Assembly (NCBI GenBank): GCA_964435355.1
Contig: CAYSYL010000004.1
Coordinates: 1-34,019, forward strand
Length of the DNA stretch: 34,019 bases
Direction: 5' to 3'
From: an uncultured Candidatus Peribacteria bacterium
GTDB lineage: Bacteria > Patescibacteriota > Gracilibacteria > UBA1369
Shown: positions 1-34,019 of the stretch, one piece after another
How positions within the stretch are numbered: position 1 is the first letter of the stretch
Layout: each line of letters opens with the position of its first letter
The notes under the pieces: generated by a model
Told to the model about the DNA's origin: nothing
The model's input: the letters and a program-made list of their open reading frames with translations, nothing else
Database searches by the model: none
Translations under genes and position numbers: made by a program

Positions 1-473
1 GAACCGAGAACAAACATTCTAGAGGAACTGGCCACATCAAAATCTTCAATGAAACGCCCGGTTTGTGCATAAAAATTGAGTGCTTTGGAGTACCCCCTTG
101 TTGTCCCGACTACCTGTGCTTTTTCATTATGATCCTGATGGACGAGAACAGCATCGTAGACCAAAAACGGCGTCACATTTTCGAGGTAATCGACTTTTTT
201 CAAATTAAGGTAATCACGATATTTCAGGCGATCGGCGGAAGTGATGGATCCTGCCAGTCCTTCATCGGGAGATCCCGGATTGATATACAGCAGATTTGAT
301 CCAAAACTGCTGACTGACCCCAATATTAAGGATTCGGCGCCTTTCCCAAGTGAAGTCATGAGGACGACTGATCCAACACCAATGATGATTCCCAGCATGG
401 TGAGAGCTGATCTCGCTTTGTTTTCCAAGACAGCAAGCCAGGCGATATGGAAAAATTTAATAAATTTTTTCAT
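1..473 (-). CDS. ABC transporter permease, FtsX/MacB family (second tandem copy; partial, continues past window start)
   Basis: Not in the ORF track because no stop lies in the window. Hand translation of the minus strand from ATG 473-471 gives MKKFIKFFHIAWLAVLENKARSALTMLGIIIGVGSVVLMTSLGKGAESLILGSVSSFGSNLLYINPG... This is clearly paralogous to the N-terminus of the adjacent 417-aa permease (LTMLGVIIGIGSVILMVSVGKGAESLILASVKSFGNQSLFIQPG). Its ATG shares one base with the upstream TAA (TAATG), suggesting translational coupling. Confidence 0.8.
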   Translation of the reverse strand, partial: MKKFIKFFHIAWLAVLENKARSALTMLGIIIGVGSVVLMTSLGKGAESLILGSVSSFGSNLLYINPGSPDEGLAGSITSADRLKYRDYLNLKKVDYLENVTPFLVYDAVLVHQDHNEKAQVVGTTRGYSKALNFYAQTGRFIEDFDVASSSRMFVLG

Positions 474-1726
474 TATTCTGATCGTAAACATTCTATTGGA
501 TCCAGTTTTGCCGCATTTCGTGCCGGATATATTCCAAATACCAGTCCAATCATGACGGATACCATGAAAGCGACCGTGATTGAGTCACCAGTGACGATAA
601 ACTCCCAGTCGGGCTGGAAGTTTACAAGAATAATTGAAATAAGCCAGGAAAGGAATATACCACTTCCCACCCCTATGACACCTGCTGTGAGAGTTAGTAC
701 CGCCGATTCTATCAAAAATTGAAGCATAATATCATCGTTTGTTGCTCCAACAGCTTTTCTAAGTCCGATTTCCCGAGTTCTTTCCGAGACGGCTACCAGC
801 ATGATGTTCATGATGCCGATGCCTCCCACTAAAAGAGAAATTGCTGCAATAGCCACCAAAAAAATGGTAAGGGTATCAGCCACCTGTTGAAATGTTTTTG
901 CCGCATCTACCTGGCTGATTACTTTGAAATCATCTTTGTTCGGGTCGTTTTCGGGATTAAAAATGGCATGCCTCTTTCGAATAAAGGTGCGAAGATCTTC
1001 AATGGTTTCAGGAATATCGCCTTTCGCATTGGCCATTATAGTCGTGAGATAGTCCACTCCCAAAAGCGTTGATCGCATGGTCGTTATGGGAATATGAATT
1101 CTTTTATCGAAATCCTGAAAAAACCTCGTCCCCTGAGGTTCCATAATCCCAATCACGGTAAAATTATATCCATTTATTTTTATATTTTTCCCAATGGGAT
1201 TTTGGTCTCCGAATAGTTCATCGGCATTTTTGTACCCGATAACGGTGACGCGGCGCGAATTGTTAATGTCGTCAGCCGAGAAAAATCTTCCTTCCTGGAC
1301 ACTCGCGTTTATGGCACGGTCATAGTTTTCATTGGTTCCAATGATGCGTGATTTTTGATTTTGACTTTCATAAGTTACCACTCCCTGATAGATGAGCATG
1401 GGAGCAACGTCTTCTATGTAATCCAGATTTTTCAAGGCCAGGTAATCTTTATATTTTATTTTGTCGATCGCCGTAACAGAAGGCGGACCTCCCTGAGTAC
1501 CACCACCCGGTTGGATAAAAAGGCTTTGATTGCCGAAACTTTTTACCGAAGCAAGGATTAAAGATTCAGCTCCTTTTCCGACGGATACCATCAAAATGAC
1601 GGAACCGATACCTATAATGACTCCCAGCATCGTTAAAACGGCCTGTTTTTTATTGCTTATCAAAGATTTCCAGGCAATGATGACGAATTTTCCGAATCTT
1701 TTGACCGACTTCTTTTTTTCAAACAT
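473..1726 (-). CDS. ABC transporter permease, FtsX/MacB family
   Basis: 417-aa ORF with an N-terminal TM helix, a large extracytoplasmic domain and a C-terminal FtsX-type TM bundle (SERTREIGLRKAVGAT motif region). It lies directly downstream of a MacB/LolD-type ATPase. Confidence 0.9.
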   Translation of the reverse strand: MFEKKKSVKRFGKFVIIAWKSLISNKKQAVLTMLGVIIGIGSVILMVSVGKGAESLILASVKSFGNQSLFIQPGGGTQGGPPSVTAIDKIKYKDYLALKNLDYIEDVAPMLIYQGVVTYESQNQKSRIIGTNENYDRAINASVQEGRFFSADDINNSRRVTVIGYKNADELFGDQNPIGKNIKINGYNFTVIGIMEPQGTRFFQDFDKRIHIPITTMRSTLLGVDYLTTIMANAKGDIPETIEDLRTFIRKRHAIFNPENDPNKDDFKVISQVDAAKTFQQVADTLTIFLVAIAAISLLVGGIGIMNIMLVAVSERTREIGLRKAVGATNDDIMLQFLIESAVLTLTAGVIGVGSGIFLSWLISIILVNFQPDWEFIVTGDSITVAFMVSVMIGLVFGIYPARNAAKLDPIECLRSE

Positions 1727-1735
1727 AGGTTATAT

Positions 1736-2473
1736 TTATTTTTCATAGTCTCCATCGAGACCAATTCGCCTGGAAACTATTTCCTGCCCTTCGATCAGTC
1801 CGTCTTTTATCCGTATAATTCTTTCCGCGTTTTTGGCGGTCACGCTTTCATGAGTAACGAGAATTATAGTATGCCCTTCTTGATTGAGTTTTTGGAAAAT
1901 GTCCATGACCTGTTTTCCGGACTTCGAATCCAGATTGCCCGTCGGTTCGTCGGCGAAAATAACGGAAGGAGAGTTCACGAGAGCCCGGGCTATGGCCACG
2001 CGTTGTTTTTCGCCCCCTGATAAGTTGGTGGGAAGAAAATTAACGCGATGGGAAAGTCCAACCGAGGCGAGAGCTTTTAATGCTTTTGCTTCGTGATTAT
2101 TGCCATCATTTGAGTACATGAGCGGCAGCATCACATTTTCTAAAACCGACGCTTTCGGCAATAAGAAAAATGCCTGGAAGACGAACCCGACTTTGTCACG
2201 TCTAATATTGGCCAAGCTATCCTTTTCAAGTTTCGTGACATTTATGTTTTCAAAAATATATTGACCGCTGCTCGCCGTGTCTAAAAAACCCAGGATGTGC
2301 ATGAGCGTCGATTTCCCGGAACCAGAAGGCCCCATAATAGCCAAGAACTCCCCTTTTCGTATGGTAAGGTCGATTCCATGAAGTACAGGCGTCGAAACTC
2401 CTTCGGTGAAATACACCTTCTTAAGATTTTTTATTTCTACGATATTCATGGGGGGATTTTCAGTTGCGACCAT
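1736..2473 (-). CDS. ABC transporter ATP-binding protein, MacB/LolD/YknY subfamily
   Basis: Walker [13 protein letters not shown] signature [15 protein letters not shown], Walker [14 protein letters not shown]-loop VTHE. The alternative start ATG 2449 ([11 protein letters not shown]...) is at least as plausible as 2473. Confidence 0.93.
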
Positions 2474-4427
2474 TGAGAGTTCTGAGAATAATTTCCTGTC
2501 CTTCTTTTAACCCTGAAAGGATTTCTATATTTCCTTGTATATCCCGTATTCCTGTTTGTACTGGGATATTCACCACTTTTCCCGCTACCTGCTCTCGAAC
2601 AATTTTCTTGTCACCGTCACTTAATACGGCTTTTTCAGGAACCGTGATGACCTGTTTCCTTTCGTTGATAATGATTTCTACATTGGCCGTCATCCCCGGC
2701 TTAATCCGTTCATCTTCACTATTGATCAAAATTTCCGTTTTATAAAATATAACATCCTGTATAACGGTCTCGACGGGATCAATTCTTACTATTTCGCCAT
2801 CAAAGGTTTCACCGGCACCGACGGCATCGAGGGTAATTTTTACTTTTGTTCCCACTTTTATCTTCCCAATATCCACTTCGGCTATATTGGCATCTATTTT
2901 AAATTTCTGGTCCGAAATCATTTCAAAACTTCCTCCTGTTGCTGTTCCTCCCGCATTTACGTCTTCTCCAATTTCAACGTTTTTTCTGGAAAGAGTTCCG
3001 CTCATAGGGGCCCGTAGAATAGTTTTTTCCAAATCTTCTTCAGCGAGCGCTACAGCGATTTGATTAACGGCTACCTGGGCCTTTAAAAAAGCTATATCAA
3101 CGGCTCTTGGCGGTGTTTTTTTCATGTCCAGATTGGCGTTTGCGGAATCCACTTTTGCCAACTGCATGTCGTGCTGCGCTTTGAGACTGCGAATGTTAGA
3201 CTCCTGCCGGTTAATTTCGACTTCATGATCTATCAATGTTTGCTGATATGTTTGAAGCTGCTGCTCATATAAGCTTTTTGCGGAACTCACCTCTGATTCC
3301 TTGCTATCACCTGATGTCGTTTCTCCAAGTTCCGCATCCAGTATGGCCTGGTATTTAGCATTTAAACTGGAATAACTTGAGGCAAGCGAATTGGTGTTAG
3401 CGGTAATGTTCGTTTTAATCTGATCAATTTCGGCAGCGGTCAAAGTCGTTGAAACCGGAAGGATGGCAAAGGCGTCCAGAATGGATTTTTGAGATTGAAG
3501 AAGATTGGTTATGGCTTCCTGTTCCTGTTTTGAAAAAGCTTCGAGTTCGGCCGGTTTATAGTTTTGCTTCGACTGAAACTCCTGATACATGGGAGTAAAT
3601 ATTTGTGTCGCTTTATAATATTTTTCCCGCGCTACGCTTAATTTTTCATAATCCAGTCTCACCATGTCCTCTGCTATGATGGATGTACCATCATCGATGA
3701 TGACCGATTTTACGTTGAAGAGTGATGACTGGATTTGGTTTCCCGTGCTATAAATTTGCGCTTCGAGGTCTTTTTTTGCCGTTTCTATGGCCAGTTCATT
3801 GGTCTTCCCAGTATTGGTCTGATTTTTAACAGCAAAATCGTAATCGGACTTGGCTTCATCGACCATGAGTTGAGCTTTTTTTTCGTCCTGTTCATATTTT
3901 TTCTTCGTGAGTTCCAACTCTTTTTCAGCATTTCCATAATCAATCCATGTTTTTTCTGCGGCCGCCTCGGCTTCTTTTACTCCTGCTATCGCAATTCTTA
4001 TGGACTCTTCCGTTTCGCCAGCAATTTTTTCGTTCAAATTAGCCTGTGCTCCCGATAAATTGGCCCTCGCCTGATCAACTTTCAGCTGCTGATCCCGGTT
4101 TTTTAGTGTCGCAATAACGGCATTTTGAGATACCATCGACCCCACTTCCACGGGAATACTTTCTATCTGTCCGCTGGATCGAAAATTTAGCGCAATGCTC
4201 GCTCCCGCTTCGACGTTTCCTGTTATTTCCACTACTTCACGGATATCTTTTCGAGCTGCCTTGACCATTTCGTATTTTATCGCAGAGTTGCTACTAATCA
4301 CTCCATAGACGATTGCTGCTCCAATAATACCTGCCGCAATATAGTATTTTTTCTTCGAGCGCTTTTTTGAAGTATTTATAGGAGTTTCAATGTTTTCTTC
4401 CAATCCTTTCACGGCTTCAGAGTTCAT
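2460..4427 (-). CDS. HlyD/MacA-type membrane-fusion (periplasmic adaptor) protein with an extended coiled coil
   Basis: 655-aa ORF. It has an N-terminal TM anchor (YYIAAGIIGAAIVYGVI), a lipoyl/barrel-sandwich start (VEITGNVEAGASIALNFRSSGQIESIPVEVG), a very long Q/E/K/A-rich helical middle, and a C-terminal beta-barrel part (GMTANVEIIINERKQVITVPEKAV). It is the first gene of the ATPase/permease operon. Confidence 0.85.
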   Translation of the reverse strand: MNSEAVKGLEENIETPINTSKKRSKKKYYIAAGIIGAAIVYGVISSNSAIKYEMVKAARKDIREVVEITGNVEAGASIALNFRSSGQIESIPVEVGSMVSQNAVIATLKNRDQQLKVDQARANLSGAQANLNEKIAGETEESIRIAIAGVKEAEAAAEKTWIDYGNAEKELELTKKKYEQDEKKAQLMVDEAKSDYDFAVKNQTNTGKTNELAIETAKKDLEAQIYSTGNQIQSSLFNVKSVIIDDGTSIIAEDMVRLDYEKLSVAREKYYKATQIFTPMYQEFQSKQNYKPAELEAFSKQEQEAITNLLQSQKSILDAFAILPVSTTLTAAEIDQIKTNITANTNSLASSYSSLNAKYQAILDAELGETTSGDSKESEVSSAKSLYEQQLQTYQQTLIDHEVEINRQESNIRSLKAQHDMQLAKVDSANANLDMKKTPPRAVDIAFLKAQVAVNQIAVALAEEDLEKTILRAPMSGTLSRKNVEIGEDVNAGGTATGGSFEMISDQKFKIDANIAEVDIGKIKVGTKVKITLDAVGAGETFDGEIVRIDPVETVIQDVIFYKTEILINSEDERIKPGMTANVEIIINERKQVITVPEKAVLSDGDKKIVREQVAGKVVNIPVQTGIRDIQGNIEILSGLKEGQEIILRTLNGRN

Positions 4428-4586
4428 GAGGTGTATTATTTAAGGCGAAAACAGCTTACTGATTAACGGCAAAAATATCAATTCCCTTTTGTTTTACAGT
4501 ATTAGTAAAATATTTTATTTTCCCTCCTTTCAAATATGGGTTACAATGCGTTCGCTCTGCTTTTTATTCTTTAACCAATCACTGGT

Positions 4587-5111
4587 ATGTACTTACAAGT
4601 TGGATTGCCCGCTCCCAAGTTTTCACTTGAAGCCCTCGTAAAGGATAATTTTGAAAAAGTATCACTTGATGACTATAAGGGGAAATGGGTTGTTTTCTTT
4701 TTTTATCCGTTGGATTTTACTTTTGTGTGTCCTACGGAAATTCTGGAGTTCAGCAAACGCATCGAAGAGTTTAAAAAACTGAATGCTGTTGTTTTAGGGT
4801 GTAGCATCGACAGTGTTTATTCCCATAAAGCATGGACAAAAGAGCTCGGGGAACTCAGTTATCCTCTGTTGAGTGATATTACCCGTGATACGAGCCGCGA
4901 TTATGGAATTTTGATTGAAGAAAAAGGTATGGCTCTCCGTGGACTTTATATTATCGATGATGAGGGTGTTTTACGTTATCAGGTGGTTCATGACGTGAAT
5001 GTCGGACGAAGTGTCGATGAAACGCTTCGTGTTTTACAGGCTTTGCAAAGTGGCGAACTTTGTCAGGTTGGGTGGAAGCCAGGACAAAAAACGTTAAGCG
5101 CCAAAGGGTAA
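4587..5111 (+). CDS. Typical 2-Cys peroxiredoxin (AhpC/Prx1 family)
   Basis: Peroxidatic Cys motif FFFYPLDFTFVCPTEI. The resolving Cys is in GELCQVGWKPGQKTL near the C-terminus. Confidence 0.92.
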   Translation: MYLQVGLPAPKFSLEALVKDNFEKVSLDDYKGKWVVFFFYPLDFTFVCPTEILEFSKRIEEFKKLNAVVLGCSIDSVYSHKAWTKELGELSYPLLSDITRDTSRDYGILIEEKGMALRGLYIIDDEGVLRYQVVHDVNVGRSVDETLRVLQALQSGELCQVGWKPGQKTLSAKG

Positions 5112-5125
5112 AAAGTAATTTATCA

Positions 5126-6082
5126 ATGTTATGTATGGAAACTTCAAATCTTTATGATCTGATCATTATTGGTGGGGGTTGTGCGGGAGCAAGCGCCGGT
5201 ATGTACGCCGCACGGCTTAATTTAAAAACAGCTATTATTGCCGAACTACCGGGAGGTCTTATTACTACGACTCATCTTGTAGAAAATTGGCCGGGGATTA
5301 AAGCTATTTCCGGACCAGATTTAGCCCAGTCACTTCTGGATCACGCTTTTTCTTATGGGGTACCTCTTTTTAATGAGCGGGTTATTGAAGTGAAGAAAGC
5401 AGTTACTGATGTTCCTTCCGGAAAACAAAGCGGCTATATCGTTACAACCTCTTCTAAAATTTACCGGGCCAAAACCGTCCTTTTTGCTACGGGGACCGAG
5501 CATAAAAAATTAAACGTTCCGGGAGAGAAAGAGTTTGCCAATAAAGGTGTTTCTTACTGTGCCTTGTGTGATGGCGCATTTTTTAAAGGGAAAACCGTTG
5601 CCGTTGTTGGCGGTGGGGATTCTGCCGTGAAAGAAGCTATTTTATTGGCAGGGTTTGCTCCAAAGGTTTATGTCCTTGTTCGTGGTGATCGTTTGAGGGC
5701 TGAGGCTCCGAATGCGGAACGACTGAAAAAAAATCCTGCCATTGAAGTTCGTTTTCGAACGGAAATTGCTGAAATTCTCGGAACACAACGAGTCGAAAAA
5801 ATAAAATTACGATCCGGGGAAGAGGTGTTGCTCCAGGGTATTTTTGTAGCTATCGGCCATTTGGCTTTGTCAGGATTGGCGAAAGAGTTGGGAGTTGCTC
5901 TCAATGCTCAAGGTGAAATCATGATCAACCGCCAATCCGAAACGAATATGCCCGGCATTTATGGTGCCGGAGACGTGTGTGACAGTCATTTCAAACAAGC
6001 CATTACCGGATCTGCGGAAGCGGTAACGGCAGCTTTTCACGCTTTTGAATATATTGGAAAAACACCTGTACTTTTTGAATAG
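5126..6082 (+). CDS. trxB: Thioredoxin-disulfide reductase
   Basis: FAD-binding site IIIGGGCAGASAGMYAAR, redox CxxC motif CALCDG, NADPH-binding site VVGGGDSAVKEA, and C-terminal GIYGAGDV. The ORF track starts at 5060, overlapping the peroxiredoxin gene. ATG 5126 (or 5135), just ahead of the GxGxxG motif, is more likely. Confidence 0.9.
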   Translation: MLCMETSNLYDLIIIGGGCAGASAGMYAARLNLKTAIIAELPGGLITTTHLVENWPGIKAISGPDLAQSLLDHAFSYGVPLFNERVIEVKKAVTDVPSGKQSGYIVTTSSKIYRAKTVLFATGTEHKKLNVPGEKEFANKGVSYCALCDGAFFKGKTVAVVGGGDSAVKEAILLAGFAPKVYVLVRGDRLRAEAPNAERLKKNPAIEVRFRTEIAEILGTQRVEKIKLRSGEEVLLQGIFVAIGHLALSGLAKELGVALNAQGEIMINRQSETNMPGIYGAGDVCDSHFKQAITGSAEAVTAAFHAFEYIGKTPVLFE

Positions 6083-6091
6083 TTTTTATTC

Positions 6092-7375
6092 ATGTCCCAT
6101 CGAATTTCTCCATCTGAATTTTCCCCCAAGAGTAAGACTTCCTCTCTCGAAGCCTTAAAAAAAATAGGGCTTTTGCTGATGATTCTTTTGCTTTTGACGA
6201 ATAGTATCCAGCTGGCTTACATGGGGAGTATTGTTTCGAGTGTCGATCATTATAATAAAGGTGTTGTTGATGAGATCGGAAAAATCCGACAGGATGTCGT
6301 GATGTTTGGGAATGATTTGAATGAGATGCGTAATTTTCTGCTTTTGCCGACGAAAGATTATAGTTCCATGAGCGAGGTTGCATCCATCGATCAGGATTCG
6401 CAAGATGAACAAAAAAGCAGTGTGGCGGAAGCGGCTCTTTATCAGTTTCTGGCTCAAACGACGGAGGAAGAGAGCGCCCAGCGAAATACTGCTGATGCTG
6501 AAAAAACTTATCGATCTCTCATTGAAGATAAAGAAGGAGAAGAGAGTCTTCATCGCGATTTGAGCACTAAAGGTTTTATCATTGAGGCTGAAAAACCTAC
6601 TGCGGATAACTTTTCTTTCTCAATTTCTTCCAAAAGTGATGAAGAGAAAGCCGTCTCTCGCCTTTTTTCCGTTGTTATCGAAAAGAAAACGAATAAGGCA
6701 TTTTTTACCAGCTATTTAGGTTCGCAAGAGTTGCATGGTATTAATCCACTTGGATATTCTTCAGAAATTCTCAAGCTGACATTGGAGAATGCGCCAAAAG
6801 TTCAAGCACTTTTGGCGAAAATTCTACAACAGGAGAAGGCGGTTACGTCTTTTTTTACGTCAGAAGGGAGAGGAATGGATGTTTTGAAGAAAAGAAAAAT
6901 AGGTTTTGAAAGCGTTCCGGGAGATCAAGAGAATGTTGTGTCTTACCATTTTACGAATGAAGCTCATGAAACGGTTGCCAGTTTTAGTGTGCGGAAAAAA
7001 GATGGAACTTTTGTTTTTGAAAACAAGTCGTATGTTTCGATGGAAGAATTGATGCCTCCTCTGATGGCTTTTTTGCAAAAGGTCGATGTTTCTACGGCTG
7101 AACAAAAACAGTTAAAGAGCCGAAAGCAGGAACTGGAAGCTATTTTCAAGCAAAAAGCTTTTGCCGATCTTCTTAAGACGAACGGACTTACGATACAATT
7201 TCCTCCCCGCGAAGAACCTAACAAAGTCCTTTATGATGTTTTGAAACCTGATAAAACTGTCGCGTTTTCATTTGTTATCGAGATTTCTTCCGGTATGTAT
7301 AAGGTTTTGAAAGATGGGAATGAGATTGATCTCTACTCGTTTTTGGACCCGGAAGGCTCAAAAAAAAAACCTTAA
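6092..7375 (+). CDS. Membrane-anchored protein of unknown function; probably the N-terminal part of the downstream LCP protein (frame break at A10)
   Basis: 427-aa ORF with one N-terminal TM helix (IGLLLMILLLLTNSIQLAYMGSIV) and a charged, Ser/Glu/Lys-rich remainder with no motif I recognise. It terminates immediately after the A10 run at 7360-7369. Confidence 0.6.
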   Translation: MSHRISPSEFSPKSKTSSLEALKKIGLLLMILLLLTNSIQLAYMGSIVSSVDHYNKGVVDEIGKIRQDVVMFGNDLNEMRNFLLLPTKDYSSMSEVASIDQDSQDEQKSSVAEAALYQFLAQTTEEESAQRNTADAEKTYRSLIEDKEGEESLHRDLSTKGFIIEAEKPTADNFSFSISSKSDEEKAVSRLFSVVIEKKTNKAFFTSYLGSQELHGINPLGYSSEILKLTLENAPKVQALLAKILQQEKAVTSFFTSEGRGMDVLKKRKIGFESVPGDQENVVSYHFTNEAHETVASFSVRKKDGTFVFENKSYVSMEELMPPLMAFLQKVDVSTAEQKQLKSRKQELEAIFKQKAFADLLKTNGLTIQFPPREEPNKVLYDVLKPDKTVAFSFVIEISSGMYKVLKDGNEIDLYSFLDPEGSKKKP

Positions 7376-7428
7376 TCCAGGGGAAAAGCGACCTTAATCT
7401 TCTGATTGCCGGAAAACATGGGAGTCTC

Positions 7429-8214
7429 GTGGATACGATGATTTTCGCGAATATCAATACGGAAAAACGCCGAATAACTCTTATCAGTATTCCCCGCGAT
7501 CTTTATTATAACGGCCGTAAGATTAACAGTATTTATGCTCTCTATGGGATGCCGGAAATGAAGCGGACTCTTTCTTACATTACCGGGTACTCCATTGACC
7601 GATATATTTTAATCGATATGTACGCTTTTATTGATGTCATTGATTTAATAGGCGGCATAGATGTGCATTTGGATAAACCGGTTATTGATCCTACCTATAA
7701 AACGCTGGATGGAGGTGAATGGGGTACTCTTTATTATCGGGCGGGAGATCATCATCTGTCGGGGAAACAGGCTTTACGCATAGCCCGCAGCCGCCATACT
7801 TCTTCGGATTTCGCCCGAGCTGAGCGCCAACAGATGATTCTCAAATCTTTACAGAAAAAGGCACGAGAACTCGGCTTTGGGGACGCCAAAAAGGTGAGTT
7901 CTTTGATCGGCACGGTCTTGAAAAAAACAGAAACGGATATTAATGTCGCTGAGGCCGTTTCTTATTATTTTCGATATCAAAGCTTCAATGTCCGGGGCGG
8001 TAATGTTTTATCCACTGGCAATGTTTTAAGTTCCCGTTACACTGGAGAAATTAAACGACAAGAGGAAGGATGTGATCTCGTTTCGGCTGAAGACACCGAA
8101 CGCCTTGAATCCTGCAAAAAGATTGAAAAGGGAGCCTATATCCTGGAACCCCAAAATGGTGATTGGGGTATTATCCGATCGTATGTTCGTGGAATAATTG
8201 AAAAAGATTTGTAA
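7429..8214 (+). CDS. LytR-CpsA-Psr (LCP) family cell-wall polymer phosphotransferase domain
   Basis: DTMIFANINTEKRRITLISIPRDLYY... and ARSRHTSSDFARAERQQ are typical LCP core motifs. The same frame is open back to 7330 and encodes the conserved LCP start (NLLIAGKHGSLVDTMIF) without any start codon, so the GTG 7429 call is truncated. Confidence 0.85.
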   Translation: MDTMIFANINTEKRRITLISIPRDLYYNGRKINSIYALYGMPEMKRTLSYITGYSIDRYILIDMYAFIDVIDLIGGIDVHLDKPVIDPTYKTLDGGEWGTLYYRAGDHHLSGKQALRIARSRHTSSDFARAERQQMILKSLQKKARELGFGDAKKVSSLIGTVLKKTETDINVAEAVSYYFRYQSFNVRGGNVLSTGNVLSSRYTGEIKRQEEGCDLVSAEDTERLESCKKIEKGAYILEPQNGDWGIIRSYVRGIIEKDL

Positions 8215-8267
8215 TACTATTGGTCATTATTCGTTTCTCTATTGGTTTATTTTTTTATTAACATTTT

Positions 8268-9065
8268 ATGAAAAAGTTTTTATCGGGAGTTTTTATCGGG
8301 TTTATGGTAGCAAGTTTACCCTTGGCATTGGCTGCTTCGAATACGCTTCCTTTTAAAGATGTGGAGGCGTCTCATTGGGCTTATGGTGCTATTTTTAACC
8401 TTTATGACAAGGGTTTTATCAAAGGGTATTCAGACCAAACTTTTCGACCAAACAATAACGTTACAAGAGCAGAACTCTCCGTTATTTTAGACCGAATGAA
8501 TCAGTATAATGAAAAAAGTTTTATCAGGAAAACTGATACCACTACCCATAATCTTACGCCACTGACGCTTGATCCTCTTAAACTGGCTCTCCAGTATCCA
8601 TCTACCTGGGGGATAGCGAAAATGGTTACCTATCCGAGTTATGAAGGATCGGGGAAGGGTTTCAGGTTTCATTTCAGTGGGTTACCTGATAACTCATCAG
8701 AAATACCTTTAACTTTAACTTATTTTGGTATCGATTATTCTGCAGAAGGAGAAGGCATCGAAGAGATGTTTGCTCCCCTTGTGGCTCCCAAAAGTTGTGC
8801 TGAATTGAAAGCTTTTGGAGATGAAGGATATTTAAGTTTCGCCGATGTGACCCAATGTGAACTGGTGCAGCATAACGGATTTACCATTGTTACGATGAAT
8901 TTTCCTGAACCAGAACCTGACACTATGAGTATTGGAGCGCGTCATAGTGCGCTTTTATACACCAATGATGCCACTTATCCCTATGTTTTTGCCACGGCCT
9001 CTCTTGATAGCAATGTGACACTTAATGATATGAAAAATCTTTTCATGACTGTCACAAAAATTTAA
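8268..9065 (+). CDS. Secreted SLH-domain protein
   Basis: Signal peptide MKKFLSGVFIGFMVASLPLALAAS, followed by one S-layer-homology domain (FKDVEASHWAYGAIFNLYDKGFIKGYSDQTFRPNNNVTRAELSVIL). The C-terminal ~170 aa are unassigned. Confidence 0.8.
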   Translation: MKKFLSGVFIGFMVASLPLALAASNTLPFKDVEASHWAYGAIFNLYDKGFIKGYSDQTFRPNNNVTRAELSVILDRMNQYNEKSFIRKTDTTTHNLTPLTLDPLKLALQYPSTWGIAKMVTYPSYEGSGKGFRFHFSGLPDNSSEIPLTLTYFGIDYSAEGEGIEEMFAPLVAPKSCAELKAFGDEGYLSFADVTQCELVQHNGFTIVTMNFPEPEPDTMSIGARHSALLYTNDATYPYVFATASLDSNVTLNDMKNLFMTVTKI

Positions 9066-9084
9066 ATTAATTCAGGCCTTTTTT

Positions 9085-9112
9085 ATAAAGAGCTCTTGAG
9101 AGAGCTCTTTAT
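9085..9112. terminator. 12-bp perfect hairpin between convergent genes (possible bidirectional terminator)
   Basis: ataaagagctct-tgag-agagctctttat. There is no clean U-tract on either strand, and the hairpin overlaps the rsmE stop codon. Confidence 0.35.
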
Positions 9113-9858
9113 AATTGAGATAGACTCGCTAATCCCATGGCCAGGATAGCGGCAGTTTCCATACGTAAAATCCTGTGGCCAAGAGAAAAACAATGGAGGT
9201 TTAATTTTCGGATGGTTTCTTTTTCGGATTCGGAAAATCCTCCTTCGGGGCCGATGAGAATGTTGCTAGTTTTTTTTGCCAATACCGGGTCGAAGTGGCC
9301 AACACTCCGCTCCATTGCCACGTATATGTTTTTTCGCTTTTCTGCGTCGCATGTTTCGAGGTAATGAGTCAGCATTCCCTCTTCCGAAAAGGTCGGGATG
9401 ACTCCCCTTTCCGATTGTTCGGCAGCTTCGAGAATAATTTTTTCGAGGCGATCTTTACGAATGGTGTGTTTAAATTGAGAGTGGTCGCCATGAACCACAT
9501 GTATATGCGTCACTCCCAGTTCGACGGCTTTTTGTAAAATCAGTTCCAACTTCTCCGGTTTGTTAGGAAGACATAAGGTCAACTCAAGAGAGAATTTTAA
9601 TTCATTTACATTTTCCTTGGTTTCTTTAAAAAGTAAGCCCACGGTATGTTTCTGAATAGTATCCACCTCATAATGATATTCAATGGTTTTGTCAGATTCT
9701 TTTTTTGCGGGAAGAAGAACGATTTTGTCTCCTTCTTTTATTCGAAGTACTTTTGCCATTTGGAAGAAAATTTCCGGCTCAGAAGTATCATCCAGTGTGA
9801 ATGGTTCGTTTTCTACAAGTTTTGAGGTGTGCCGTAAAAAAAATCGGTAGGTTCTCAT
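9109..9858 (-). CDS. rsmE: 16S rRNA (uracil1498-N3)-methyltransferase
   Basis: Size and layout of the RsmE/SPOUT family (PUA-like N-terminus). C-terminal SAM-binding knot motif ILIGPEGGFSESE ... LGHRILRMETAA. Its ATG overlaps the nadA stop (ATGA at 9855-9858). Confidence 0.88.
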   Translation of the reverse strand: MRTYRFFLRHTSKLVENEPFTLDDTSEPEIFFQMAKVLRIKEGDKIVLLPAKKESDKTIEYHYEVDTIQKHTVGLLFKETKENVNELKFSLELTLCLPNKPEKLELILQKAVELGVTHIHVVHGDHSQFKHTIRKDRLEKIILEAAEQSERGVIPTFSEEGMLTHYLETCDAEKRKNIYVAMERSVGHFDPVLAKKTSNILIGPEGGFSESEKETIRKLNLHCFSLGHRILRMETAAILAMGLASLSQL

Positions 9859-10913
9859 TTTTGATTGGTTAATTCAAACATTTTTTGAAGGGCACGAGCG
9901 GCTTGTGCCCGAATCTTTTCAGGAATTTGTATAGTTTGGACTTCCGTCGGATTTGTAAGAGCCTGCCGTATATTGACGAGGGTGTTCATTTTCATATAGG
10001 GGCAAAGTCCGCACATGCCGATAAACTCTTTGTCCGGCATTTCCACCCGCATCCGTTCCGACATGCCACATTCTGTGACTAACATGTAGGAAGGCGCTTT
10101 ATTTTTCTTGATGTAGTGAATCATTCCTTCTGTTCCTCCCACAAAATCCGCGCTATCGGCTACTCCCGGAGGACATTCCGTGTGAGCCAGGACTTTTAAT
10201 CCGTTATGAATCCTTCGAAATGACACTATTTTTTCCGCCTTGAAATCTTCGTGGACGATACAATGGCCTTTCCAGGTTATAAGTTTTTTTGAAGTTTGAG
10301 CCTGAAGGTTTTTGGCCATGAGCTCATCCGGCAAGAATATTATTTCTTTCGAAGGCAACGATTCAATAATTTTTAGCGCATTTGAGGAGGTGCAACAAAC
10401 ATCTGATTCGGCTTTTACTTCCGCTGAGGTGTTCACATAGGTTACCACTGGAAGGCCGGGATATTTTTTTTTCAAATTTCTGACATCCTTTGCCGTAATG
10501 GAGTCGGCTAAAGAGCAGCCTGCTTGAACCGCCGGTAAAATAACCGTTTTAGTGGGATTAAGTATTTTTGCCGTTTCTGCCATGAAACGAACCCCGGCAA
10601 AAATAATGGTATCGACTTTCGTTTGCCTGGCTTTTTCACTGAGCTGGTACGAATCACCCACGAAATCGGCCACTCCATACATTATGTCGGCCGTTTGATA
10701 GGAATGAGCCAAAATAATAGCATTTTTTATTTTTTTTAGCTTGTTGATTTCCAATGTAAGTGGGGCGATGATTTGGCAGTAGCCTTCGTTAAAACCGACA
10801 TTTTGGAGTTTTTTGTGAAGACGCAACGTCTCTTTTTTTATCAGAGCCGTTGAAAATTGACCGGCTTTTTGTCGTATACGAAGAGGGGTTGTTTTCTGAA
10901 CTTTACTTGGCAT
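9855..10913 (-). CDS. nadA: Quinolinate synthase
   Basis: NadA motifs ILAHSYQ, DFVGDSYQLS, FAGVRFMAETAKILNP, VTYVNTSAEVKA, HTECPP and CPYMKMNTL. The ORF-track start at 10961 lies inside an intrinsic terminator hairpin, so ATG 10913 (MPSKVQKTT...) is preferred. Confidence 0.92.
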   Translation of the reverse strand: MPSKVQKTTPLRIRQKAGQFSTALIKKETLRLHKKLQNVGFNEGYCQIIAPLTLEINKLKKIKNAIILAHSYQTADIMYGVADFVGDSYQLSEKARQTKVDTIIFAGVRFMAETAKILNPTKTVILPAVQAGCSLADSITAKDVRNLKKKYPGLPVVTYVNTSAEVKAESDVCCTSSNALKIIESLPSKEIIFLPDELMAKNLQAQTSKKLITWKGHCIVHEDFKAEKIVSFRRIHNGLKVLAHTECPPGVADSADFVGGTEGMIHYIKKNKAPSYMLVTECGMSERMRVEMPDKEFIGMCGLCPYMKMNTLVNIRQALTNPTEVQTIQIPEKIRAQAARALQKMFELTNQK

Positions 10914-10945
10914 TAAAATTTTTGATGGATGCAGGCCGACTGTAA

Positions 10946-10980
10946 CAAAAAAGGCTGCCAAAGGAAAGATTTGGCAGCCT
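10946..10980 (-). terminator. Rho-independent terminator (minus strand) 33 nt upstream of the nadA start
   Basis: Minus strand reads AGGCTGCCAA-atctttcct-TTGGCAGCCT followed by TTTTTG. This is a 10-bp GC-rich perfect stem plus a T-tract. Confidence 0.65.
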
Positions 10981-11107
10981 AAGAGCCTGTCTGAAAAGGT
11001 CTCTTCCTTCGTTGAAAATTAAAAAGCAGCTCACCGTATTTGTGAATACGGCTCGCTTTGCTTTTTAATTTTCGCCTTGTAATAGGCCTTTTCAGACAGG
11101 CTCTTAG
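10979..11107. repeat. 129-bp nested imperfect palindrome (21-bp and 15-bp perfect arm pairs plus a 7-bp apical stem)
   Basis: ctaagagcctgtctgaaaagg (10979-10999) is the exact reverse complement of 11087-11107. gaaaattaaaaagca (11014-11028) is the exact reverse complement of 11059-11073. The apical stem is ccgtatt/aatacgg (11034-11040 / 11045-11051). The two perfect stems are separated by non-complementary 14/13-nt segments. Confidence 0.8.
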
Positions 11108-11123
11108 ATTTATTGGGAATATT

Positions 11124-11804
11124 TTACCAAAACCTCAATTTACTTACTTTATCTGTTACTGCAGAAGCTGCTCTACTCAACCAGCCCCCACTTTTCTTTT
11201 TCGAAACCTCATTATGTAATTCTGCTCTTTGCGCTTCGTTATTATTTTTCATATAAGAGGGTTGCGGGGTATTATACGGGGCTTCATTGTAAGTGACGGG
11301 CCTTGCTCCATACACTGCTTTTTCTTTTTCGGCAATATCATGGAGGTAAGCCTGGGCTGTGTAACGGCGAAGTATGTGATTTGTGCTTAATTCCTGCATA
11401 GTTATCCTTTCCCCTCCCTTATGTCCGAGTTCATCATTGTATCTCCTTAACCAATCTGGATCTGTTTGCATCATTTCATTTAAGGCATTCATCCATTGGT
11501 CCCGATCTGCTTTTGTATTTAGAACTGGATGAAAATTTTGTCCTTTAAAAGCATTTATTGTTGATTGGTCAAAGGTTTCCGTATGGGGCTTGCCTAACAC
11601 AGAAGATTTGCCAAAAACTTCTATTGCTTGACTTGCAATATCCTGAAGTGCCGATGCCACTTCATTCTTTGGATTTAACCCAATATCGTCTGTCAATTCT
11701 GACATGTCGGCTTCAACCGATTGAGCTTGAGCTACATATTTTGTATTTTCATAATATCCTTTGCTTGTTTGCTCAGAGCTATATTTATGGTAATTAGTTT
11801 GCAT
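11124..11804 (-). CDS. Hypothetical protein (no recognisable family)
   Basis: 226-aa ORF that fills the gap between flanking genes. It is hydrophilic with a basic C-terminus (SKKKSGGWLSRAASAVTDKVSKLRFW). I recognise no motif in it. Confidence 0.55.
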   Translation of the reverse strand: MQTNYHKYSSEQTSKGYYENTKYVAQAQSVEADMSELTDDIGLNPKNEVASALQDIASQAIEVFGKSSVLGKPHTETFDQSTINAFKGQNFHPVLNTKADRDQWMNALNEMMQTDPDWLRRYNDELGHKGGERITMQELSTNHILRRYTAQAYLHDIAEKEKAVYGARPVTYNEAPYNTPQPSYMKNNNEAQRAELHNEVSKKKSGGWLSRAASAVTDKVSKLRFW

Positions 11805-30531: not shown

Positions 30532-31362
30532 ATGAAAAAAATACGCCCCCATCCCGGGAAGGTTTTATCACCTTCTTTTCTCCCTTTTTGTCTTATTTTA
30601 GCAAAAAAAGCTGGTTTTATTTTAAAGAAGTACAGCGAGGATGGATTTCATATTTATCATAAGAAGCAGTTAAGCAATAACCTTGTGACAGAGGCGGATC
30701 GAGCCAGTGAAAAATATATTGTCGAGCAGATACGCCGGAAGTTTCCGACCCATGCGATTGTGGGTGAAGAGGGTGGTAAGCAAGGAGCTGGGAAGGCTTC
30801 GCATCCTTTATATCGATGGATCATTGACCCCTTGGATGGGACGCTTAATTTTACTCATGGATTTCCAGCATTTGCCATATCCATTGCTTTAGAATTTCAA
30901 AAAGAAATTATACTCGGAGTGGTGTATGCTCCCCTCCTCGGAGAAATTTTTTATGCGGAACGCGGGAAAGGAGCTTTTTACGTTTTCCACCTATCGGGAA
31001 AAAAGGCAAAGAAGTTAACGGTCAGTGATGTAAAGAGAGTACGTGAGAGTTTGCTTGCGACAGGACTTCACTCCAAGGACACCTCGGGAAATCTTCCGGC
31101 TTTTCAACACTTTTTGTATAAATCCCAGGGGATACGCCGCACCGGATCGGCCGCCCTTGATTTATGTTACGTGGCTGCGGGACGTTTCGACGGTTTTTGG
31201 GAGCCAGGTTTATCTTCGTGGGATATCGCTGCGGGTTCTCTTATTGTTGAAGAGGCCGGAGGCAAGGTTTCCAATTATAATGGGAAGAAACTAGATCTTG
31301 AGGCGGAGAATATTGTGGCGTCGAATGGGTTGATCCATAAAGAGATTTGCAACCATTTATAA
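30532..31362 (+). CDS. suhB: Inositol monophosphatase family protein (SuhB-like)
   Basis: Motifs VTEADRASEKYI, WIIDPLDGTLNFTHGFP, and RRTGSAALDLCYVAAGRFDGFWE ... SWDIAAG. Confidence 0.87.
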   Translation: MKKIRPHPGKVLSPSFLPFCLILAKKAGFILKKYSEDGFHIYHKKQLSNNLVTEADRASEKYIVEQIRRKFPTHAIVGEEGGKQGAGKASHPLYRWIIDPLDGTLNFTHGFPAFAISIALEFQKEIILGVVYAPLLGEIFYAERGKGAFYVFHLSGKKAKKLTVSDVKRVRESLLATGLHSKDTSGNLPAFQHFLYKSQGIRRTGSAALDLCYVAAGRFDGFWEPGLSSWDIAAGSLIVEEAGGKVSNYNGKKLDLEAENIVASNGLIHKEICNHL

Positions 31363-31401
31363 AGCTGGTACACTAACCTTCGCCGTAATTTAGGAAGGTG
31401 T

Positions 31402-31478
31402 GTGCCCGTAGCTCAGATGGATAGAGCGTTGGTTTGCGGAGCCAAAGGTCGCGCGTTCGACTCGCGCCGGGCACACCA
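31402..31478 (+). tRNA. tRNA-Arg (anticodon GCG), CCA encoded
   Basis: Hand-folded cloverleaf. Acceptor stem gtgcccg/cgggcac. D arm gctc-agatggata-gagc. Anticodon arm ttggt-ttGCGga-gccaa. Variable loop aggtc. T arm gcgcg-ttcgact-cgcgc. Discriminator A, then CCA. Confidence 0.9.
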
Positions 31479-32615
31479 GAACTTTAAAATTTCAACATTT
31501 GAGCCTTTTTCCTTATCAGAAAGGGCTTTTTGCGGTTCGAGCCGAGAAAATATCTTAAAGATAGGATTATATTCGATTTCAAGCTCACCATCACATAGAA
31601 AGTACTTATAGCCAACGGTTTTCAATATCAAATGTTTCTGTTCGACCGACTGAGCAGTTCGAAATTTATAAACTAACTTCGCAGAGAATTCAAAAGTTTG
31701 CTCACATTTCTCAAGCCAGCTCTTCTGGTTATTTTCAGATTCATCAATTTTCCTCTTTAATAAGCTCAACTGCTCTTGTAATAAAGCCTTTTGTCTCAAA
31801 TATTCTTCATCACTTAAAAGACTCCCATTTACATTGGAGGGGGAGATCCTTAGCTGGAGTAGGTTATCCAGACGTTGTTGATGGTCATTATAGTCCAATC
31901 GTAGTTTGTGTGTGCCTCCAGCTATAAGGCTTGCTTCTTCTTTATGTATTTTTGCTAATTTCTTTAACCCCCATTCCACAAAAAAAGGATGGAGCTGAAC
32001 TTTTTCAAGAAGCTTAACAATTTTTTCTTCCATTTTATCTTCTCGTACATAAGGTTGCCTACAGGCACCTCTCTTCTTAGTGCAACGATAATAAGTATAA
32101 CCTTTCTGAACTTCGGCGGTAATCATTCCACCGCAATCAGAACACTGTATTAAACCGGTATAATAAAACTCGCGCCAATGTTTTCTAGGCTTCGCTTTAT
32201 CGGTCAAAGCTATTTGGACTTTTTCAAATAAATCTCTCGAAATAAGGGGCTCATAATTGCCAAGGTACTCTTCTTCTTTATACCTCATCACCCCACAGTA
32301 AAATTTACTGCTTAGGAGTTTACTGATTGAAGATTTATCAAAGGGGCGATCCCCTTTCTTTGAATGGATTCCCATACCGTAAGCTAATTTTGCTAATTGT
32401 TCTAGCGTATAGACACCTTTAGCTGCTTCTACGGCAAGCTTTTGAATAGAAGGGCCTAGAAGAGGATCAATTTCGATCCGCTTTAAAGGTCTCTTAAGAG
32501 CAATTAACATTTCTTGTTTTTTATGATCATAGAGTTTACCGGCTATTCTCCCATTACGATCAATATTTAAATAACCTACAGGGGCAACTCCTACCCACTC
32601 CCCTTTTTCCAGTTT
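31413..32615 (-). pseudogene. Large serine recombinase lacking its N-terminal resolvase catalytic domain
   Basis: The frame is open from 32615. It encodes the recombinase domain start (LEKGEWVGVAPVGYLNIDRNG), then the Zn-ribbon (CSDCGGMITAEVQKGYTYYRCTKKRGAC) and a coiled coil. A stop lies immediately upstream (32616-32618), and the next gene starts at 32653 on the other strand. No catalytic Ser domain of ~140 aa is therefore present. The 3' end of the ORF reads antisense through the terminator into tRNA-Arg. Confidence 0.75.
31502..31531 (+). terminator. Probable rho-independent terminator after tRNA-Arg
   Basis: agcctttt-loop-aaagggct (one G-U pair) followed by TTTTT. Confidence 0.5.
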
Positions 32616-32652
32616 TTATTTTGAGGCAGAAAATTGGAAAAATTTAGAGCAG

Positions 32653-33129
32653 ATGGTTAGGAATTGGAAAAATAAAGCTTTACTTAAAAGACGGTATAAA
32701 ATATTGATGGATTGCGTAGTATTTATAAAAATTGCTGGCAAAAGAAGAATAAACAGTGCTAATGCGGTCTTACCTACCTTAATAACTCAAATCGACGGCG
32801 CTTTGAGCGACTTTCTAGATTCCAAACATATCCAATGGGATTGTGATTATGATGATTGGGTTGATCTTAAGACCGGAAAGATTAGAAAAGTTGGAAGAAA
32901 GACTCAATATAAAAATTCAAAGCCAAAGGTTTTAAGTCATTCTCTTGATGATCTTGCAAACGATATATTTTTGAATATCTTGTTCCAAAAATCTCAAAGT
33001 GGAAAACCGCTTAACACACCATTTAATTTCAATAGGCACAAAATAATTCATGGCGAAAGTGTTAAATACGGTAGAAAAGATTATTTAATTCGAGCATTCA
33101 TGGTCTTGGATTTGCTTGCACATCTTTAA
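32653..33129 (+). CDS. Hypothetical protein with a C-terminal HEPN-like Rx4H motif
   Basis: 158 aa. The C-terminal segment FNFNRHKIIHGESVKYGRKDYLIRAFMVLDLLAHL contains R-x4-H followed by an amphipathic helix, as seen in many HEPN nuclease families. The assignment rests on this motif only. Confidence 0.4.
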   Translation: MVRNWKNKALLKRRYKILMDCVVFIKIAGKRRINSANAVLPTLITQIDGALSDFLDSKHIQWDCDYDDWVDLKTGKIRKVGRKTQYKNSKPKVLSHSLDDLANDIFLNILFQKSQSGKPLNTPFNFNRHKIIHGESVKYGRKDYLIRAFMVLDLLAHL

Positions 33130-33262
33130 TAAAAGTAGAATCGATAAATTTCAAAAATATAATTAGGGATGTCGGACAATAAATTTATCATTTTTAAAGG
33201 CTCTTCAGTTGCACATACGGCTTGCACGTGTTAACCTACTATCCCAGAAAAACACCACAAAC

Positions 33263-33736
33263 ATGACAACACCAAAAACCAAACAGCTGCTTGCTTATTT
33301 ATCTAGCAAGCATATAAATGCATCGCTGACTGTTTTGATGAAACTTGCTTATTTGGTTGACCTCATTAGTTACAAAAAAAATAAAAAACAAATCTCTGAC
33401 TTTAGATATATAAGATTTTACTACGGTCCTTATGATTCAGCGATAAACGAATATATCGAAGAACTATTAAAAGAAGGCATTATCTGTGCACAGCCCGAAT
33501 ATACTTATTCAGGTAGTGAGTACATAATTTACCATTTTAATACTGATAAAGGATTTTCCTTCGATGCCTTGGAGATACCTGAAATTGAATTGATAGATGG
33601 AGTTCTGGAAGGTCTCAAAGGATATGGAGCAAAAACGTTAACAGATATAGCATATAAGACAGCTCCATTAGTTAAATTGAAAGCTACACAGGGGGGAAAA
33701 GAACATCTAGGAGAATTACTTGATCTCGGTGCATGA
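33263..33736 (+). CDS. Panacea (DUF4065, SocA/PanA-like) antitoxin-domain protein
   Basis: LTVLMKLAYLVDLISYKKNKKQISDFRYIRFYYGPYDSAINEYIEELLKEG fits the KLxYLxD ... GPY core of the Panacea domain. ATG 33263 is preferred over the TTG 33209 given in the ORF track. Confidence 0.65.
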   Translation: MTTPKTKQLLAYLSSKHINASLTVLMKLAYLVDLISYKKNKKQISDFRYIRFYYGPYDSAINEYIEELLKEGIICAQPEYTYSGSEYIIYHFNTDKGFSFDALEIPEIELIDGVLEGLKGYGAKTLTDIAYKTAPLVKLKATQGGKEHLGELLDLGA

Positions 33737-34019
33737 TAGTCTTTCCTTTCTTTCCAGATGAATTCCATTTAAAAAAGATTGCAACCAGGCATTTGTATTT
33801 TGATAAAAAATCTAAAGAAAGCTCGACAAACGTCATTAAACCCAAATACAAACTTGCCGGTATCAATGATGTTTTAACTGATATAAGCGGAGTATATCGC
33901 TTTTTTGTTGGAACATCTGAAAAAACGTCATGCCAAAAAGAATTAACCTTGGTGGTTCAGCCTGATCACTGGGAAGATATTGAGGGAAGCCATGTATCTA
34001 CTATTGGCACTGCAAATGG
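33733..34019 (+). CDS. Unknown ORF translationally coupled to the Panacea gene (candidate toxin; partial, runs off window)
   Basis: ATG 33733 overlaps the upstream TGA (ATGA). Hand translation gives MIVFPFFPDEFHLKKIATRHLYFDKKSKESSTNVIKPKYKLAGINDVLTDISGVYRFFVGTSEKTSCQKELTLVVQPDHWEDIEGSHVSTIGTANG..., which stays open to the window end. No motif recognised. Confidence 0.45.
   Translation, partial: MIVFPFFPDEFHLKKIATRHLYFDKKSKESSTNVIKPKYKLAGINDVLTDISGVYRFFVGTSEKTSCQKELTLVVQPDHWEDIEGSHVSTIGTAN

Follow-up and report, generated by a model that had tools for sequence, protein, structure and literature searches.

The large serine recombinases (LSRs) of phages and conjugative elements, such as phiC31, Bxb1, A118/LI and the SPbeta-type enzymes SprA/YokA, target protein-coding or intergenic sites, and serine integrases need no host factors. 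Integration into tRNA genes is treated, by genomic-island finders as in the literature, as a trait of tyrosine integrases, as in Islander-type islands, in which an intact tRNA gene lies at one end, a displaced 3' fragment of it at the other, and the integrase gene beside the tRNA gene. The Islander paper describes serine-family integrases as not known to target tRNA genes (PMC4383910), and later surveys give RNA targets mainly to tyrosine integrases (PMC10484663, PMC13626063, PMC12884075). In streptococcal elements in rumA, the 3' end of the integrase frame and the att site overlap, and integration alters the C-terminus of the serine integrase, which differs between the integrated and the excised state (PMC4701971). 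We found no description in the literature of tRNA-targeting serine integrases or of the clade considered below, although supplements (e.g. TIGER/Islander tables) may list cases. Here, we analyze the right end of a 34,019-nucleotide stretch of DNA from an uncultured Candidatus Peribacteria bacterium (the window), which is the entire contig C4 of the metagenome-assembled genome (MAG) G000 and ends at 34019. A preliminary description made from the letters alone had proposed a fossil integration junction at the 3' end of a tRNA-Arg gene in this region, with a decayed integrase and several retained cargo genes.

We conclude, with a probability of roughly 0.78, that the region is the attL end of a small integrative element in the 3' part of tRNA-Arg(GCG), and that the integrase of this element belongs to a tRNA-targeting LSR clade and was disabled by a deletion; the preliminary description was right in outline, since an inactivated LSR lies beside tRNA-Arg. 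Specifically, an element would have inserted into the 3' part of tRNA-Arg(GCG). Elements of the clade are predicted to recombine in the tRNA T-loop, to bring with them the final ~20 nt of the tRNA and to have their integrase gene at the extreme edge of the element, which would be why the recombinase frame ends inside the tRNA in antisense. Later, one deletion, joined at 32616, would have taken away ~143 codons from the start of the recombinase gene, and with them the catalytic serine domain, as well as the first ~285 codons of a divergent HEPN-type gene and everything between the two genes, including both promoters. Because the deletion took the catalytic domain, the element could no longer excise, and a Panacea-type antitoxin gene and its partner gene would remain. 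We infer by analogy with its relatives that the window copy took the same integration route as they did.

The predicted target, and the attL side of the element, is an intact tRNA-Arg(GCG) gene at 31402-31478 on the plus strand, on which ARAGORN and Rfam (RF00005, 65 bits) concur with the preliminary description; as in tRNA-integrating islands, this intact tRNA gene adjoins an integrase gene. The recombinase frame occupies 31413-32615 on the minus strand and runs for 400 codons from stop to stop, with its first ATG at 32510 and its stop codon at 31413-31415. It overlaps tRNA-Arg by 66 nt, stop codon counted; tRNA positions 77 to 12, read in antisense, supply its last 22 codons, which agree with the ending given in the preliminary description. 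The frame matches PHROG 95, an integrase family (E 1e-39), and the Pfam search proposed by the preliminary description matched Recombinase (PF07508, E 4.8e-12) and Zn_ribbon_recom (PF13408, E 5e-10), both above their cut-offs, and detected no Resolvase domain (PF00239) in the frame. In an alignment with homologues the window frame retains the four Zn-ribbon cysteines as well as other invariant residues, and what remains comprises the Recombinase domain, the Zn ribbon and the C-terminal region. LSRs also have a coiled-coil motif inserted in the Zn-ribbon domain; this part of the frame aligns with the homologues, and the coiled coil named in the preliminary description is putative. A database search returned 268 relatives, of which the best full-length ones are 530-550 aa long and carry PF00239. 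Compared with these, the window copy begins at homologue residue ~144, directly after the catalytic domain and helix E, and ~143 N-terminal codons are absent, in agreement with the earlier claim of a recombinase that lacks its N-terminal catalytic domain. Because LSRs are recognized by an N-terminal catalytic domain with a nucleophilic serine, which this copy does not have, its sequence identifies it as the remnant of an LSR and not as a working member of the family. A phmmer search of the remnant against the PDB gave no match.

The full-length relatives share with the phage and conjugative LSRs the order Resolvase, Recombinase, Zn ribbon and C-terminal region, and the structure nearest to the clade profile is that of SPbeta YokA (9dxh, E 9e-20). 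Unlike these LSRs, the clade targets the tRNA T-loop and the 3' end of its gene overlaps the tRNA, and the window copy has no catalytic domain. The closest recombinases among 50,697 phage records are at most ~25% identical, and a scan of IMG/VR viral contigs found no relative of the recombinase.

The missing part of the recombinase was not detected anywhere in the window; a possible N-terminal fragment at 33371-33433 (E 0.44-5) was judged to be a chance match. We considered that the gene might instead be split by a cassette consisting of the HEPN stump, the Panacea gene and the partner gene, with its catalytic part lying past the contig end. The contig stops only 1.4 kb past the junction, the DNA beyond it is unseen, and the MAG is 92.7% complete, all of which would accommodate such a split. 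However, the insert would have to start with an already truncated gene exactly at the junction, and the other contigs of the MAG carry no Resolvase domain of the remnant's clade, only two full-length LSRs that are distant from it; a split gene is, therefore, very unlikely. These two LSRs (L001, C29:1347-3182; L002, C42:4537-6375) have 612 and 613 codons, and neither overlaps a tRNA.

The right edge of the remnant coincides with the left edge of a second truncated gene. Similarity to recombinases stops at 32615, and similarity to a family of HEPN-type genes, detected by tblastn, begins at 32617 on the opposite strand, which places the point at which two divergent genes without 5' parts abut at 32616 (plus or minus 2 nt). 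The minus-strand TAA at 32616-32618 and the plus-strand ATG at 32653 named in the preliminary description are both located there; the TAA that interrupts the recombinase frame would have been created by the join itself, and the similarity of the HEPN-type gene extends upstream of its ATG. This gene is a 3' remnant (32617-33129, plus strand) that encodes a C-terminal HEPN-like domain, and its open reading frame from ATG 32653 has 158 codons for amino acids. An exhaustive search yielded 308 relatives at E <= 0.001; most of the best 150 of these are 270-510 aa long and match only via their C-terminal ~155 residues. Among 80 metagenome loci of the family, the gene encodes 412-506 aa in 60 of the 69 copies that lie off contig edges, and the window gene is short of ~285 N-terminal codons. 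Because two divergent genes lacking their 5' parts abut within 1-2 nt, one deletion that included the intervening region would most simply explain both truncations and the loss of mobility; the minimum loss at the junction is ~1.3 kb. The preliminary description had listed the HEPN-like gene first among cargo genes retained after the integrase decayed, a view that needs amendment because this gene itself lost ~285 N-terminal codons at the junction with the recombinase. We also note that AATTGGAAAAAT occurs as two identical 12-nt copies in direct orientation shortly to the right of the junction, at 32632-32643 and 32662-32673, 30 nt apart; each copy encodes N-W-K-N in the HEPN-type gene, and the repeat is probably a coding coincidence.

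A related arrangement is present in a tRNA-Asp islet (positions 1-11300) on a 192-kb metagenome contig (L140). Here, a 235-aa recombinase stump ending ...RNGRDSNPRPPA is separated by ~4 kb from a full-length HEPN-type copy of 499 aa, which is 80% identical to the window gene in the part that they share. The same islet holds an 862-aa gene that looks restriction-modification-like by eye only and three genes without an assigned function, after which housekeeping genes follow.

A junction between two truncated genes could also arise if assembly or binning had joined two organisms, either at 32616 or over the whole islet. The bin is fragmented (154 contigs) and has 5.3% contamination, its depth is low at about 3-5, and the G+C (GC) content is lower right of the junction (0.339 right of 32616, z -1.94). 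However, a 258-nt Logan contig from run X1 (32481-32738) runs across the junction and shows 0 differences, which speaks against a scaffolding artefact; other Logan contigs tile 32711-33968, one from run X3 spans the border between the tRNA and the islet (31416-31566), and some parts of the stretch have no Logan cover, a gap to which we attach no weight. The source sample may be among the Logan runs, so that they do not count as independent support; nevertheless, we regard an artefact as extremely unlikely. Separately, Logan contigs of runs X1 and X2 agree with the window over the final ~33 nt of tRNA-Arg (to 31478) and have a different sequence beyond this point; their source may be another organism or a strain free of the islet.

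To place the overlap between the recombinase frame and tRNA-Arg in context, we compared 80 homologous loci (L003-L082) from many phyla and from many small-genome uncultivated lineages; when the first in-frame stop is taken as its end, the frame terminates within the locus in 70 of them, and tRNAs were called by ARAGORN at the default or a relaxed threshold. Of these 70 frames, 49 run into a convergent tRNA or tmRNA (46 at the default threshold and three at the relaxed one), and five further loci have a tRNA that was called only on an excised stretch at the relaxed threshold. The overlaps are 10-95 nt long, with exactly 66 nt in three of the 49, and involve 17 kinds of tRNA or tmRNA (based on 47 overlaps in a default-threshold count). 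Of the 48 loci in which the reading of the T-loop could be assigned to a frame, 41 share one frame, six use a second and one uses the third, even though the linker ahead of the tRNA-encoded tail varies by tens of residues. The tail common to the aligned homologues consists of W, two residues, R, one residue, D/E/G-S/L-N and then often R-P, giving the consensus W-x-x-R-x-D/E-S-N-x-R-P; the homologues share it because the antisense of the CCA and the T-loop encodes such residues. Because kinship is uncorrected in these counts, the bias of 41/48 toward one frame is no proof of selection and may reflect either selection on the tail or shared ancestry; it hints that the protein may use its tRNA-encoded tail. 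This recombinase family is represented in 63 of 151 sampled genomes of the order to which the window's host belongs, G000 included.

Direct evidence for how these elements integrate comes from three relatives. At L006, which also occupies a tRNA-Arg(GCG) gene, the tRNA 3' end recurs 2.9 kb away as an exact 22-nt repeat, which brackets little beyond the recombinase gene; at L049 (tRNA-Gly), a 21-nt repeat of 90% identity brackets 2.1 kb; and in genome G075 (tRNA-His), an exact 22-nt repeat brackets a 15,596-bp element that contains a recombinase 40% identical to that of the window, a 202-aa gene, a 711-aa gene and further genes. The repeat starts directly after the TTCG of the T-loop in all three. 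An empty site is available for the third: in G067, which is of the same genus, tRNA-His runs straight into the flank that follows the second repeat in G075, and in G083 the tRNA-His site holds a 1.5-kb insert. In G075, the last codons of the recombinase and its stop fall beyond the repeat, in host tRNA DNA, and because of this the C-terminus of the protein must differ between the integrated and the excised state. At the same site, a second, inner 12-nt copy of the tRNA-His end with a hairpin (L225, G075:C2, ~179100-179230) is common to G075 and G083 (L223, on C15), and remnants seem to have accumulated in tandem at one tRNA.

Because of the overlap in 49 of 70 loci, the direct repeats and the empty site, antisense read-through into a tRNA is best seen as a trait of the clade. 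The preliminary description had cited the frame's antisense run into tRNA-Arg in its picture of a decayed integrase; the 66-nt overlap is real, and comparison of the loci indicates that recombinase genes of this clade are normally built in this way and that the overlap is not a sign of decay. The same data bear on whether the genes might be native and the recombinase adjacent to the tRNA by chance, with a meaningless antisense read-through of 22 codons. By our own estimate, 22 codons free of stops would arise by chance roughly one time in three, and the read-through taken alone would permit this explanation; the recurrence of the overlap at 17 kinds of tRNA, the preference for one frame, and the direct repeats and empty site in relatives speak against it, and we give chance adjacency hardly any credence.

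The architecture resembles that of Islander-type islands in that L006, L049 and G075 combine an intact tRNA, with the integrase beside it, at one end with a displaced 3' fragment at the other; it differs in the enzyme family and in the short repeats, here 21-22 nt. It also resembles the streptococcal rumA elements (PMC4701971) in that integrase frame and att site overlap at the 3' end of the frame and integration alters the C-terminus; it differs in that their target is a protein-coding gene rather than a tRNA gene, and the two clades are unrelated. We tentatively propose, as a possibility that falls short of an even chance, that a large and undescribed LSR clade of small-genome uncultivated bacteria and some other phyla uses tRNA and tmRNA genes as attB, with a crossover in the T-loop and a C-terminal tail templated by the antisense of the target tRNA. 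As a variant of the known integrases, a tRNA-targeting serine recombinase clade is probably new.

Decay of the catalytic domain is not confined to the window. Away from contig edges, eight of the 80 loci have a decayed catalytic domain: five carry it out of frame, one has no such domain, one retains only a part of it in frame, and in one the first ~20 positions are missing. The truncation points thus differ among the decayed copies, which argues for decay rather than for a conserved headless form. This comparison is relevant because the remnant might have been kept as a working DNA-binding protein that blocks related elements at the att site of tRNA-Arg or acts as a regulator. Such a role would fit 400 open codons in DNA of 38% GC with the Zn-ribbon cysteines and invariant residues kept, a start at ATG 32510 that would yield 365 aa, and database relatives without a catalytic domain, e.g. 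of 444, 414, 413 and 390 aa. On the other hand, these short database entries may be contig-edge fragments, and the region upstream of the window frame is deleted; no promoter-like site lies upstream of the frame start, those on the minus strand being inside or beyond the frame. Together with the locus-to-locus differences in truncation point, this makes a retained headless protein unlikely.

We next consider the two edges of the disabled element. By analogy with L006, L049 and G075 only, its att core is predicted to be the tRNA 3' end just past the TTCG of the T-loop (31460-31480); the left edge of element-derived DNA would be expected in this interval, and the crossover in the window tRNA-Arg may have occurred there. 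Beyond the tRNA, a 10-bp hairpin followed by a T run (31501-31528, plus strand) lies within the variable linker of the recombinase frame. The preliminary description had named a tRNA terminator; the hairpin and T run exist, but the fold energy of -14.7 kcal/mol is unremarkable compared with shuffled sequences (z -1.13) and a terminator scan did not flag the hairpin, leaving it a weak terminator candidate. The right end (attR) lies outside the assembled sequence: no orphan 3' fragment of tRNA-Arg was detected in the other 153 contigs of the MAG or in 31300-34019. As a possible far flank, the genes that follow tRNA-Arg in relatives G009 and G011 sit on contig C22 of G000; because other housekeeping genes continue there and gene order differs, no island boundary was gained from C22.

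As the preliminary description had suggested, we also compared the locus with syntenic genomes and computed windowed GC content. The order RNR-IMPase-tRNA-Arg(GCG) is kept in five relatives of the same family but of other genera. The islet genes are absent after tRNA-Arg in all four relatives with readable downstream DNA (0/4), while in the fifth (G006) the contig ends 185 nt past the tRNA. The islet (31479-34019) has a GC content of 0.355, compared with ~0.42 before it; relative to equal-sized windows of the genome (mean 0.403, standard deviation 0.029) this corresponds to z -1.66, and 4.9% of the windows are as low or lower. The bin as a whole comprises 1.42 Mb with a GC content of 40.4%. 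The DNA is, therefore, AT-richer after tRNA-Arg, as had been judged by eye, but the drop is weaker than that judgment implied.

Several observations weigh against reading the locus as the attL end of an element disabled by deletion. The absence of the islet from relatives is weak evidence, because these belong to other genera and their gene order after the tRNA differs. The shift in composition is real but small. Because the contig stops at 34019 and an orphan tRNA-Arg 3' copy was not found, the boundaries of the island are unproven here. The tRNA-Arg(GCG) gene differs by 1 nt from that of G006 and is identical or near-identical among relatives, and no element-derived stretch is visible inside it; for this reason the crossover position rests on the analogy with three loci. 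Most intact homologous loci have no repeat of at least 11 nt within 10 kb. A repeat search over this distance gave any match in five of 47 loci, and only those at L006 and L049 lie at the expected end of the element; the repeats in the three other loci did not mark a far end. A search for exact 11-mer repeats was convincing only for L006, its reverse-strand control being noisy with 22 matches. None of the other 79 HEPN-type loci has the Panacea gene or the partner gene beside it. Finally, the remnant has no internal stop over 400 codons, a pattern compatible with a recent deletion and also with a retained function.

At the tRNA-Arg locus of relative G006, a second, partial copy of tRNA-Arg(GCG) (~position 20 to 73, without CCA) lies 80 nt after the tRNA gene (L106, G006:C28, 7398-7659), with a strong hairpin beside it and the contig end soon after. 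The repeat of ~50 nt is far longer than the 21-22 nt of the serine recombinase elements. Its sequence suggests the scar of an earlier insertion and, with it, past traffic at the same site.

The HEPN-like label of the 158-aa gene, which the preliminary description had proposed, is supported by an invariant motif and by fold matches. R128 and H133 (R-x4-H) are invariant in 53 sequences of the family, in line with the R-x4-6-H motif of HEPN proteins. An AlphaFold2 (AF2) model of the remaining domain has a mean predicted local distance difference test (pLDDT) score of 96.2, and its best VIA-align matches are HEPN proteins (1jog, Z 7.4; 8xdj, 7.2; 2hsb, 7.1), followed by the HEPN matches 5yep (6.8), RnlA (6.7) and Csm6 (6.2); all of these scores are below 8 and can be reached by chance for helical bundles. 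Foldseek found nothing in the PDB at E <= 0.001, the gene has no match in Pfam, NCBIfam or PADLOC and thus falls in no curated HEPN family. Among the structure and family searches made for the region, the Atlas returned unnamed clusters only. Compared with HEPN RNase toxins and abortive-infection proteins (HEPN-MNT, RnlA/LsoA, Csm6, AbiV), the protein shares the invariant R-x4-H and has a predicted helical fold whose best matches are HEPN structures (Z 7.4-4.3), but it matches none of the hidden Markov models of HEPN families, and its full-length relatives have an N-terminal part of ~290 aa without any family match. We consider the label reasonable but not proven.

Two further genes lie to the right on the plus strand. 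The first (33209-33736) encodes a SocA/Panacea-domain protein, a candidate antitoxin, and bears out the earlier assignment with a match to PF13274 (E 2e-10) of 42 bits against a cut-off of 25.7; its true start is likely ATG 33263, and it has weak DarG-like matches in PADLOC and NCBIfam. The second (33733-34017), the 5' half of a gene cut by the contig end, overlaps the stop of the first by 4 nt and is a candidate toxin partner. Relatives of this partner form only five clusters of 172-181 aa that are 61-69% identical; it has no Pfam or PADLOC family, and the AF2 model of the partner family is unusable (pLDDT 34.3). The two genes may form a toxin-antitoxin pair and would then probably serve as an addiction or defence module. 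Like Panacea (SocA-like) toxin-antitoxin pairs, they combine a PF13274 match above cut-off with a 4-nt overlap to a small partner gene, which is typical of two-gene operons; unlike them, the partner here is without a known family and is cut by the contig end. Panacea domains are reportedly paired with many toxin types, as Kurata et al. are said to have described in 2022.

With respect to the host, the bin contains five tRNA-Arg genes (gcg, ccg, tct, tcg and cct), and none with the anticodon ACG is among the 40 tRNAs called. The GCG anticodon at the tRNA-Arg locus of the window is also present in relatives, and CGU and CGC seem to be decoded in this bin without inosine.

Taken alone, the locus is an ordinary mobile-element fossil, and its value lies mainly in annotation, where the recombinase and the 158-aa gene can both be recognized as stumps that a single deletion would have left. 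The clade carries more weight than the locus, as its serine recombinases would do a job held to be a trait of tyrosine integrases. If true, this would overturn the working rule that tRNA genes are targets of tyrosine integrases only; software for mapping islands should then admit serine integrases at tRNA genes, and gene callers should permit integrase frames that end within tRNAs. Serine integrases would, moreover, gain natural landing sites that are conserved across many bacteria.

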